Assembly: GCA_965197645.1 (NCBI GenBank)
Contig: OZ240219.1
Coordinates: 640,001-704,000 of the forward strand
Direction: 5' to 3'
From: Dehalococcoidia bacterium
Lineage (GTDB): Bacteria; Chloroflexota; Dehalococcoidia; Plut-88900
Length of the DNA: 64,000 bases
Shown: positions 19,507 to 21,538 of the stretch, piece after piece
Position numbering within the stretch: position 1 is the first letter of the stretch
Layout: the number at the start of each line of letters is the position of its first letter
Notes under the pieces: generated by a model
Told to the model about the DNA's origin: nothing
Seen by the model: the letters and a program-made list of their open reading frames with translations, nothing else
The model's database searches: none
Made by a program: the position numbers and the translations under genes

Positions 19507-20250
19507 ATGATATCCGACATACAGCGAAACCGATTGCTCAGCTACGCCAACGTCGTGGCGACGGTACTGGTGGTGCCGGCCATCGCCATCCTGCTTACCA
19601 CCACCAGCCTCCGGTTCACCATCAACCTGCCTCGCCTCTACGAGTACGGTTTCGAGGAGTACGACATCAGCCGGCGCACGGGCATCAAGGATGAGGAGCT
19701 GATCAGGATCGGTGGTGAGATCCGAGACTACTTCAACTCCGACGAGGAGCTCATCGATATCAGAGCCATCATATACGGAGAAGAGCAACCCCTGTTCACC
19801 CAGCGGGAGATCATCCATATGAAGGATGTGAAGGGGCTGGTGCAGGGGACGTACACGGTGCAGTGGATAACTTTCGGGTTCGTCGTGGCGTACGGTATGA
19901 CGTGCCTGGCCGTCCTGAGACTATCTGCGTCAGCGATGCTGGCCAAGCGGCTCCTCTGGGGCGGGGGGTTCACCCTGACGGCCATAGCGGTCCTTGGACT
20001 GGCCTCCCTCATCGGTTTCGACGCCGTGTTCCTCAAGTTTCACCAGATAGGCTTCTCCAACGATTTCTGGCAGCTGGACCCCCGGATTCACAACCTGATA
20101 GCGATGTTTCCCCAGGGCTTCTTCCTGGACGCTACGCTGTTCATCGCGTTCTTGACCATGGCCAAGGCCGCGCTGCTCATGGCCATAGGCGGCGGATATC
20201 TGCTCTGGCGCCGGAGAACGCTGTCCAACGAAAGGACGGGAGTCGGGTAA
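19507..20250 (+). CDS. TIGR01906/DUF1461 family integral membrane protein
   Basis: REIIHMKDVK, FLKFHQIGFSNDFW, LIAMFPQGFF; several TM segments. Confidence 0.85.
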   Translation: MISDIQRNRLLSYANVVATVLVVPAIAILLTTTSLRFTINLPRLYEYGFEEYDISRRTGIKDEELIRIGGEIRDYFNSDEELIDIRAIIYGEEQPLFTQREIIHMKDVKGLVQGTYTVQWITFGFVVAYGMTCLAVLRLSASAMLAKRLLWGGGFTLTAIAVLGLASLIGFDAVFLKFHQIGFSNDFWQLDPRIHNLIAMFPQGFFLDATLFIAFLTMAKAALLMAIGGGYLLWRRRTLSNERTGVG

Positions 20251-20321: not shown

Positions 20322-20620
20322 CCGTCGTTGCGAGCGACGGAGGAGGTAGTCCTGAGGGGGGTCGAAGGGAGCGAAGCAATCTGGAGCGGTGGAGTATACA
20401 TCCCTGCCAGTCAACGGTCAGACCTGGCTAGATTGCCACGCCCCGACTTTGTCGGGTCTCGCAATGACGGAGGTGCGGATTCAGACGTTGCCCTCTCTTC
20501 TATCATGTTATGGGTGCAGGGCCCGCCCTGCCTTTAGCAGGGGGTTGGGAGACGTGCCCCCAAAGTATTCGAACCTCCCAGGGCGGGTGGGAGGGAAGAA
20601 CCACCTGGGGTGGGGAGCTT
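20322..20620 (+). repeat. mosaic intergenic repeat (family A inverted pair plus GC-rich modules)
   Basis: CGTCGTTGCGAGC...GAAGCAATCT faces AGATTGCCAC...CTCGCAATGACG; 20427-20565 closely matches the reverse complement of ~46605-46741. Confidence 0.8.
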
Positions 20621-20641
20621 GACGTCCCAATTGCTCCCGAC

Positions 20642-20677
20642 AAAAGAAGGCGGCCCGACAAGTCGGGCCGCCTCTTA
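20642..20677 (-). terminator. intrinsic terminator
   Basis: AGGCGGCCCGAC-TT-GTCGGGCCGCCT hairpin followed by TCTTTT on the minus strand, just downstream of the FmdB-type gene. Confidence 0.8.
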
Positions 20678-20699
20678 ACGTTTGCTTGTTAGCTAGACC

Positions 20700-20930
20700 T
20701 CAGCGACACCCACATCCAGTGGGACCACAACCCCCTCAGGTGGGGCCCGACGAGGGAGCGGGCATCGGGTCTCCGGCCCCAACCGTCGAGAAGGAGGCGA
20801 AGGTGGATACGGTCCTCGAAGCGCCGTTGTGGCACGATGGGCAGGAGACCGCTTGGTCAGACTTGCTCATCGGCATCAACAGCTCGAACTCGGACTCACA
20901 CGTGGTGCACTTGTACTCGTAAAGGGGCAT
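20700..20930 (-). CDS. FmdB-family zinc-ribbon protein, probable selenoprotein (in-frame TGA at 20738-20736)
   Basis: MPLYEYKCTTC...CPSC; read-through gives ...SGPT-U-GGCGPTGCGCR-stop; RBS AGGAGG; promoter TTGACA-N18-TAGGAT (20986-20957). Confidence 0.8.
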
Positions 20931-21085
20931 GGTTTTCCTCCTGCGTAGTCGGTGACATCCTAGTGGTGTTTCCCGCCCGATGTCAAGGCTTGGCCTGGAT
21001 ATGCAGTGTATTGTTGTCTTGCTCAGCCGGTTACCGGTGGGGTATCTTAGGAAACAGCCGCTACCCAATCAGGAGGAGTCCCGTC

Positions 21086-21538
21086 ATGCAGAAAAGCAAG
21101 ACCGAACCCTGGATGCCCGCCGACGAGTACGGTCGCTCGCTGCCGGTCTTTACCATCAATCTCCTGGTCACCGACGTCGCCCGGGAGGTGGAGTTCTACG
21201 AGGCGGTGCTGATGGCCAAGTGCCGCTATCAGGACGTCGACTTTGCGGCTGTGAACGTGCAAGGCATCGAGTTCATGCTCCACGCAGACCACACCTACGA
21301 CGTGCACCCCTGGCTGGAACCCTTCAAGGCCGGCGATCTCCGGGGCCTGGGCGCCGAGCTACGCATCCTGGGTATAGACCCCGACGAGGTGGAGAAGGCG
21401 GCGCGAGGGTTTGGTGCGGACATTATTCAGGAGGCCAGCGACAAGCCCCACGGCTGGCGGGAGGTCATGGTCGCCGACCCCGAGGGCTACGTCTGGGCGG
21501 TAGGGGTAAAGTTCTACGGGAACGGCGAGTCCGAGTAG
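21086..21538 (+). CDS. VOC/glyoxalase family protein
   Basis: NLLVTDV, MLHADHTY, KPHGWRE..DPEGYVW; RBS AGGAGG. Confidence 0.82.
   Translation: MQKSKTEPWMPADEYGRSLPVFTINLLVTDVAREVEFYEAVLMAKCRYQDVDFAAVNVQGIEFMLHADHTYDVHPWLEPFKAGDLRGLGAELRILGIDPDEVEKAARGFGADIIQEASDKPHGWREVMVADPEGYVWAVGVKFYGNGESE

Follow-up and report, generated by a model that had tools for sequence, protein, structure and literature searches.

A small zinc-ribbon gene of a Dehalococcoidia bacterium is interrupted near its 3′ end by an in-frame TGA, and its reading frame runs on beyond this codon to a second stop. Does the protein end at the first TGA, or is this codon read as selenocysteine (Sec)? The gene lies in a stretch of 64,000 nucleotides that we analyzed as a whole (hereafter, the window), and a preliminary description of this DNA had proposed that the organism inserts Sec into a UxxC motif here. 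Judging from our sequence comparisons, the TGA at codon 65 is very probably read as Sec, with the protein continuing for 11 residues. The earlier proposal is supported by the Sec machinery of the host, by the alternation of Sec and Cys at this column in related genomes, and by the constraint on the codons past the TGA. The recoding is the ordinary bacterial mechanism, and the novelty is the position of the selenium in a C-terminal Cys4 tail.

Anatomy of the zinc-ribbon gene

Proteins of the FmdB family begin at the initiator Met and carry two CxxC motifs about 17 residues apart, followed by a low-complexity C-terminal region. The window protein has this layout, with M1, C8-x2-C11, an interval of 18 residues, C30-x2-C33 and then a stretch rich in Gly, Ser, Pro and Ala. 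Its full coding sequence (20700..20930; this and all following features of the gene are on the minus strand) starts with the ATG at 20930-20928 and comprises 76 codons, with the predicted Sec at codon 65, and the true stop; this extent is supported by the translation, by HMM matches and by orthologs that align over residues 1-75. The zinc-ribbon domain with both knuckles (residues 1-46; 20793..20930) was delimited by HMM matches and AlphaFold2. PF09723 (Zn_ribbon_8; 52.7 bits, cut-off 34.4; 4.3e-14) and TIGR02605 (57.4 bits, cut-off 31.3; 1.1e-15) matched over residues 1-39 and 1-45. AlphaFold2, supplied with 42 aligned orthologs, predicted a three-stranded ribbon with block pLDDT values of 83-88 over residues 1-40 and was confident over residues 1-46. 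The pLDDT fell below 50 at residues 47-49 and 51-76; the prediction with these orthologs gave no structure for the tail and says nothing on metal binding. Residues 47-64 (20739..20792) form a Gly/Ser/Pro/Ala-rich linker that is variable in the alignment and, from its pLDDT, predicted to be disordered.

The linker is followed by the in-frame TGA (20736..20738), whose reading as a predicted Sec comes from comparing this column across the genomes of the taxonomic family. The preliminary description had observed that the open reading frame stops at TGA 20738-20736 and that the frame continues with GGG GGT TGT GGT CCC ACT GGA TGT GGG TGT CGC TGA, and the sequence agrees. The read-through product, MPLYEYKC..C...C..C...SSGPT-U-GGCGPTGCGCR, has 76 residues, 11 of them beyond the Sec.

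The gene is flanked by signals on both sides. A strong Shine-Dalgarno sequence, AGGAGG, can be read directly 6 nt ahead of the ATG (20937..20942). Further upstream lies a promoter-like site (20957..20986) of TTGACA, an 18-nt spacer and TAGGAT, which agrees with the consensus at 10 of 12 positions and is a consensus match only; two promoter-like sites were found in the scanned region, where shuffled sequences led us to expect 0.2. Downstream, the fold of the sequence gives an intrinsic terminator (20638..20674) with a 12-bp stem (20674-20647), a 4-nt loop and a T tract, just past the second stop as previously described. It begins 25 nt past the second stop and 61 nt past the first TGA. Because the promoter-like site and the terminator flank the gene, it would form a monocistronic unit encoding a small FmdB/Ruc-type protein of 76 residues.

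Selenocysteine machinery of the host

A genome without selA, selB or selC had been named as an argument against Sec. Instead, the complete host genome (G000, a single contig of 3.21 Mb) encodes selA (547.7 bits), selB (346.8 bits, matching model positions 2-580 of 581 and thus full-length), selD (379.7 bits, with one in-frame TGA) and a tRNA-Sec, which scored 66.4 bits in Rfam and was called tRNA-SeC with anticodon TCA by ARAGORN. Both selA and selB scored above their cut-offs in all 12 genomes of the taxonomic family.

The host selD (G000:C1:941844-942767, outside the window) is itself a selenoprotein gene (...HCAG-U-ASKF...), and behind its UGA lies a hairpin of 8 bp whose GUA loop sits at +31. 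No in-frame TGA occurs in any of the six formate dehydrogenase alpha-like matches in G000; thus, they provided no SECIS for comparison. A genome-wide hunt for other interrupted open reading frames, based on GC3, returned 369 candidates, did not discriminate and was dropped.

Alternation of Sec and Cys at codon 65

Cys is the usual counterpart of Sec in homologs. A six-frame search of 61 related genomes recovered full-length orthologs in all 11 other genomes of the family. Homologs ending at the first TGA had been named as a second argument against Sec, and an alignment of homologs in search of Cys had been recommended. What we found at the codon-65 column was TGA in five of the 12 family genomes (G000, G001, G002, G004 and G011) and TGC or TGT in seven (G003 and G005-G010), and the C-x4-C-x-C tail with the following stop is kept in all 12. 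The Sec forms end in ...GPT-U-GGCGPTGCGC(R/N), ...GAG-U-HSCSPHGCACSA or ...GVG-U-G(S/P)CSTTGCGCAS, and the Cys forms in ...GVG-C-GGC(G/S/P)P(T/A)GCGCAH. Across the 42 aligned orthologs of the class, the tail reads C-x2-C-x4-C-x1-2-C, with C68 invariant and C65 and C73 at least 90% conserved; its counterpart in the window protein is U65-x2-C68-x4-C73-x-C75 (20706..20738). Since Sec and Cys alternate within 12 related genomes, the match between the TGA and this column, together with the conserved tail, is more than chance.

In the class sample, 244 of 401 genomes contain a match at E <=1e-10, and among the 150 matches listed (there are 126 further matches) a TGA inside the match occurs only in the five family members. 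This tally takes in G243, a genome flagged as unpublished, and no result depends on it. At the level of the phylum, we searched 401 genomes, a sample without other family members, with a DNA pattern that, apart from the host genome itself, revealed no in-frame UxxC FmdB tail; nine of the 401 genomes matched the pattern, compared with four matches of a backward-pattern control. A degenerate UxxC...GCxC DNA pattern hit at least 120 loci in genome contigs, none of the 120 listed having a zinc-ribbon open reading frame upstream, and is too loose to describe a distribution.

A selA tree of the 12 genomes and one outgroup stood in, as a single-gene proxy, for the species phylogeny. Three genera with one species each, all carrying the Sec form (G000, G001 and G002), lie outside a nine-species genus, within which the Sec forms of G004 and G011 share a clade (98/99) with the Cys forms of G006 and G009, and the well-supported branches cannot be reconciled with fewer than two changes between Sec and Cys. 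In terms of independent lineages, the five TGA forms count for only about three. One protein cluster at 90% identity holds 64-residue (TGA) and 77-residue (Cys) members together; from this mixed cluster and the forced changes on the tree, we infer that the exchange of Sec and Cys at codon 65 has been recent and repeated.

Within the nine-species genus, the Sec forms of G004 and G011 (L035 and L032) equal the Cys form of G009 (L027) over the first 48 residues and differ from that of G006 (L024) at a single one of them (N24/D24), and their last 29 residues differ markedly from both Cys forms. This pattern in the sequences hints that the 3′ part of the gene was replaced in G004 and G011, rather than altered by a single point change. 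In other orthologs of the class (L034, L039, L042, L046, L047, L050, L056, L058, L061, L062 and L065), the second knuckle of the ribbon reads C-P-x-G-H, which would give a Cys3-His site.

Constraint past the TGA

Over the ten codons past the TGA, G000 and G001 differ by four single bases, all of them at third positions and synonymous. Strain variants gave a similar picture. Contigs of runs X4 and X6, from two other studies, are about 96% identical to the window and show no difference at 20736-20738, and none of the strain-variant contigs of X4, X6, X11 and X12 (two further DNA studies and two RNA-library runs) alters the first TGA. The true stop (TGA, 20700..20702) is less fixed: a C>T change at 20701 in X4, X6 and X12 turns it into TAA, orthologs have TAG or TAA, and all three stop codons thus occur there among strains and species. 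One contig carries 20721 G>A, a synonymous change from CCC to CCT that keeps the stem pair as G-U. All coding-region differences among those listed are silent (18 further differences fall outside the list). Given the synonymous drift and the changing second stop, the behavior of the first TGA is that of a sense codon, and the behavior of the second is that of a stop. Contigs from the two RNA-library runs cover 20725-20938 and 20688-20929, that is, just the zinc-ribbon gene including the part past the TGA; DNA can occur in such libraries, and these contigs are no proof of transcription.

An error of sequencing or assembly, with TGC or TGT as the true codon, had been raised in the preliminary description as a further way in which the reading could fail. 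We regard it as scarcely credible, because TGA recurs in five species genomes, in contigs of two other studies and in two RNA-library runs, and because no difference occurs at 20736-20738 although differences are listed around it. We found no point in support of such an error.

The TGA could otherwise be a real stop, with a protein of 64 residues and, behind it, either a tail that was cut off recently or an RNA element that is conserved, for example, as part of the terminator region. On this account, the tail, its frame, its three cysteines and its stop would not be expected to persist in five genomes of four genera with synonymous changes between G000 and G001 and among strain variants, nor would the TGA be expected to fall exactly on a column that is at least 90% Cys. 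Additionally, the second stop drifts between stop codons and the first never does, and the terminator stands after the second stop, not the first. It can be said for a real stop that the zinc ribbon and the linker are complete without the tail, that the hairpin discussed below is statistically unexceptional, and that public collections hold 64-residue products in several variants with one common end; however, these entries are gene-caller output and not evidence. Overall, we consider a real stop at codon 65 unlikely, and we retain the reading of this codon as Sec.

A candidate SECIS hairpin

In bSECISearch-type criteria, a bacterial SECIS is a stem-loop just 3′ of the UGA with a G in its apical loop. 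The E. coli fdhF-type SECIS is an in-ORF stem-loop directly 3′ of the UGA, with the apical-loop G about 20 nt from the UGA. The preliminary description had pointed to a SECIS-like hairpin, CCCAC-TGGAT-GTGGG, whose loop begins 17 nt past the TGA, and this hairpin is present at 20723-20709. We list it as a candidate SECIS with the apical part CCCAC / UGGAU / GUGGG (20709..20723), which has a folding energy of -7.3 kcal/mol alone and is lengthened in G000 by a lower stem to 20728-20703. The loop GG lies at +22/+23 from the U of the UGA, which we take to be the spacing of the E. coli fdhF SECIS.

When 45 nt were folded from the UGA onward, the apical 5-bp hairpin was the minimum free energy element in all five TGA forms (-5.7 to -7.3 kcal/mol alone). 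The Sec-form loops are UGGAU, CGGGU or GGUU, and each puts GG at +22/+23. The closing pair is C-G in G000, G001 and G002 and A-U in G004 and G011, as a result of compensating changes, and G002 retains its five pairs through a one-base register shift (CGCAC/GUGCG). All five pairs form in five of five TGA forms and in none of the seven Cys forms. In each Cys form, the closing pair is broken (C·C) and three or four of the five pairs remain, so the peptide itself imposes some of the structure. In the 12-sequence alignment, 80% of the cells pair, compared with 33-56% when the 3′ partner is slid by one to three columns; the covariation score was reached in none of 500 shuffles, a result that relatedness alone can yield. 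For the Cys encoded in the 3′ arm, all five Sec forms use the rare codon TGT (22% of usage in the genome), compared with three of the seven Cys forms.

As a control, we recoded each tail peptide synonymously by genome codon usage in 2000 trials per Sec form. Hairpins of at least 5 bp with a G in the loop and the same spacing arose in 23-34% of the recodings, and the real Sec-form sequences fold no more stably than the recodings. The hairpin alone is therefore weak evidence. The form and spacing given in the preliminary description held, but not the weight placed on the hairpin, since Gly/Cys/Pro-rich coding sequence often makes such structures. Bacterial SECIS elements are poorly modeled in Rfam, so an empty Rfam result is uninformative; our scan of 20500-21100 at E <=10 returned chance-level sRNA matches only and no SECIS family. 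Similar to the E. coli fdhF SECIS, the hairpin is an in-ORF stem-loop 3′ of a UGA in a genome with a full-length SelB. Unlike it, the stem is much shorter, at 5 bp, the loop is UGGAU, CGGGU or GGUU and not GGUC, and there is no conserved bulged U. Taken together, the hairpin is compatible with a minimal SECIS, and the comparison of forms is suggestive of selection in the Sec forms. We infer that it may function as a SECIS.

The minimal hairpin, which is unlike the GUC/GGUC-looped hairpins behind other FmdB UGA codons, would also be in keeping with a read-through without selenium, in which near-cognate insertion of Trp, Cys or Arg, stimulated by the hairpin, would give the 76-residue product. 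We judge this very unlikely. G000 has a complete Sec system, and selA and selB are found throughout the family; the aligned residue in the relatives is Cys; the loop GG sits at what we presume to be the fdhF spacing; and a leaky stop kept in four genera would be unusual.

Relation to known selenoproteins and to public annotation

An FmdB selenoprotein is not new in itself. As far as the available parts of Zhang and Gladyshev (2008; PMC2398784) show, the "Putative regulatory protein, FmdB family" has ranked among the predicted selenoproteins since that analysis of Global Ocean Sampling (GOS) reads, in which two FmdB reads were counted as selenoproteins and 807 homologs as Cys forms. In both of these reads, Sec is located in the first CxxC knuckle (...YSUQEUG... 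and ...YKCSNUG...; PMC2398784, supplement file 2). Reviews of 2022 and 2026 list FmdB in their available tables under TIGR02605, with the motif U/CxxU or UxxU and no accession (PMC9312934, PMC13188914). The mention of Sec-containing FmdB members in the preliminary description is thus borne out in print, but the published position is the first knuckle and not a C-terminal UxxC tail (PMC2398784). Within the reach of our full-text literature searches, no C-terminal Sec form of FmdB came up.

Similar to the GOS forms, the window protein is small, belongs to TIGR02605 / PF09723, has Sec for Cys with an in-ORF SECIS logic, and is predicted only. However, the GOS forms have their Sec in the first knuckle and belong to a branch without the Cys-rich tail, whereas in the window protein both knuckles are Cys (C8, C11, C30 and C33) and Sec is the first ligand of U-x2-C-x4-C-x-C. 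In contrast to the GOS reads, the window case also comes with a complete genome, a Sec machinery and Sec/Cys orthologs.

The window protein further resembles the small selenoproteins with Sec near the C-terminus that are described in the available part of PMC13188914, namely, the dual CXXC family (NF041197), the UXX-star families (NF041114 and NF041211) and SaoC (Cys-Cys-COOH). These are likewise very small, contain CxxC pairs and have their Sec among the final residues, so that their SECIS lies partly or wholly beyond the coding sequence, and that text suggests metal-ligand roles for them (PMC13188914). An NCBIfam scan of the window protein at E <=1 returned no selenoprotein model; TIGR02605, NF053663 and two weak matches below cut-off were the only results.

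In public collections, an exact look-up recovered four of the Sec forms as 64-residue truncations (the truncated product of G004 is identical to that of G011, so one look-up covers both), under names that include "zinc ribbon domain-containing protein" and "putative FmdB family regulatory protein". Three read-through sequences, with Cys written for Sec, were absent from these collections in the same exact look-up, which is blind to U-bearing records. One member of the 90% cluster, P0029 (176 residues), continues past ...CGGCSP in another frame and looks like a frameshifted or miscalled Cys form.

Other FmdB tails with an in-frame TGA

In another family of the class, the G042 genome has an FmdB gene (L036, open reading frame from locus position 621) whose tail carries TGA in place of its fourth Cys and then ends at a stop (...CATCGPGGCST-U-HV). 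Behind this TGA lies a hairpin of 7 bp, with its GUC loop at +24, and selA is present in the genome (576.7 bits). Read from the sequence, this TGA is probably a second Sec position in the FmdB tail motif.

We also collected 80 FmdB relatives from metagenomes (loci L187-L266), all of them distant, with best-segment identities of 33-57%; no further UxxC forms occurred among these 80. The first in-frame stop is TGA in 45 of them, many times after ...G-F-T/S, and the true stop comes one to five codons on (for example, in L213, L217, L222, L229, L236, L246 and L247). A hairpin of at least 5 bp whose loop, located at +22 to +26, is GTC, GGTC or GGT follows in 10 of the 45 TGA-first loci versus none of the 35 TAA- or TAG-first loci. 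Seven TGA-first metagenome proteins that were scanned matched no selenoprotein-specific NCBIfam model at E <=0.01, and TIGR02605 was the sole named family. From their sequences, the TGA-first forms look like a widespread unannotated C-terminal Sec form.

A putative role of the tail

Sec substitutions usually mark cysteines that perform redox or metal chemistry. Since Sec takes the place of one conserved ligand of the Cys4 tail, the tail is suggested to be a second redox or metal site. By analogy, the Cys4-type tail may be a second metal-binding or redox-active site in which Sec serves as the first ligand for higher reactivity. A broader reading is that the C-terminal Cys4 motif is the working redox or metal center of the family, with selenium at several ligand positions (the first here and the fourth in G042); we put this forward tentatively, as the less probable side of the question.

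An analogue is offered by Ruc (Rv0991c) of M. tuberculosis, a zinc-ribbon protein that becomes a holdase chaperone upon oxidation (Becker et al. 2020; PMC7448276). In the available text of that paper, the N-terminal domain of Ruc spans about 50 residues and binds zinc through four cysteines, the C-terminus behind it is disordered, hydrophilic and variable, and Ruc homologs occur in 100% of the 22 Chloroflexi genomes surveyed (PMC7448276). The window protein is similar in having a four-Cys zinc ribbon and a disordered C-terminus, a likeness drawn from the available published description of the architecture and not from sequence. However, Ruc as described there lacks Sec, and all of its cysteines lie in the ribbon, whereas the window protein has a Cys3-Sec cluster in its tail. 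On the model of Ruc, the disordered C-terminus may carry a redox switch that the tail site tunes.

According to the same available text, Ruc genes often lie beside chaperone genes (PMC7448276), but the neighbors of the window gene do not include any. Among the neighbors examined (14-28 kb of the window), we found no chaperone genes; metabolic and membrane genes are present instead, including a 2-oxoacid dehydrogenase operon, MazG, a family III CoA-transferase and other metabolic genes. The divergent neighbor of 150 residues has no Pfam match. The convergent neighbor (19507-20250, plus strand) encodes a Lit-family membrane protein of 247 residues (PF07314, 1.1e-32), and a Lit-family gene stands directly beside the zinc-ribbon gene in 20 of the 23 genomes compared across the class. 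A functional link with this neighbor was set aside because the two genes converge and share no common transcript. The spacer between them (20380-20620) consists of dispersed repeats, with 125 blastn matches in the genome and a core of up to about 75 copies; in metagenome runs, the contig depth climbs in these repeats from roughly 8-10 to a maximum of 1248, and joints are numerous.

A model for codon 65 and its implications

Overall, we provide a putative model for the expression of this gene. The UGA at codon 65 would be decoded as Sec by the organism's own SelB and tRNA-Sec, guided by a minimal stem-loop that is built from the last codons of the gene (5 bp, with the loop GG at +22/+23). Translation would then end at the second stop, 25 nt ahead of the terminator. 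Under selenium shortage, termination at the UGA would leave a 64-residue product without the tail. If this is true, the UGA would set the ratio of the tail-less (64 aa) to the tailed (76 aa) protein by selenium supply.

The finding would correct the annotation, in that the 64-residue proteins in the databases would be truncations of a 76-residue Sec form. A complete genome together with sister species that carry the Cys form offers a test case for a very short in-ORF SECIS and for Sec/Cys turnover within a genus. The predicted Sec also places selenium in a region of FmdB/Ruc proteins that has hitherto been treated as a featureless disordered tail. Because Sec usually marks redox or metal cysteines, it suggests that the four-Cys motif at the C-terminus is a functional site in this very widespread, almost uncharacterized family. 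If the tentative reading of this motif as the redox or metal center of the family is true, then, with the widespread ...F-T-U-G/A tails, FmdB would be among the most widespread families of small selenoproteins, with nearly all of its members truncated in the databases.
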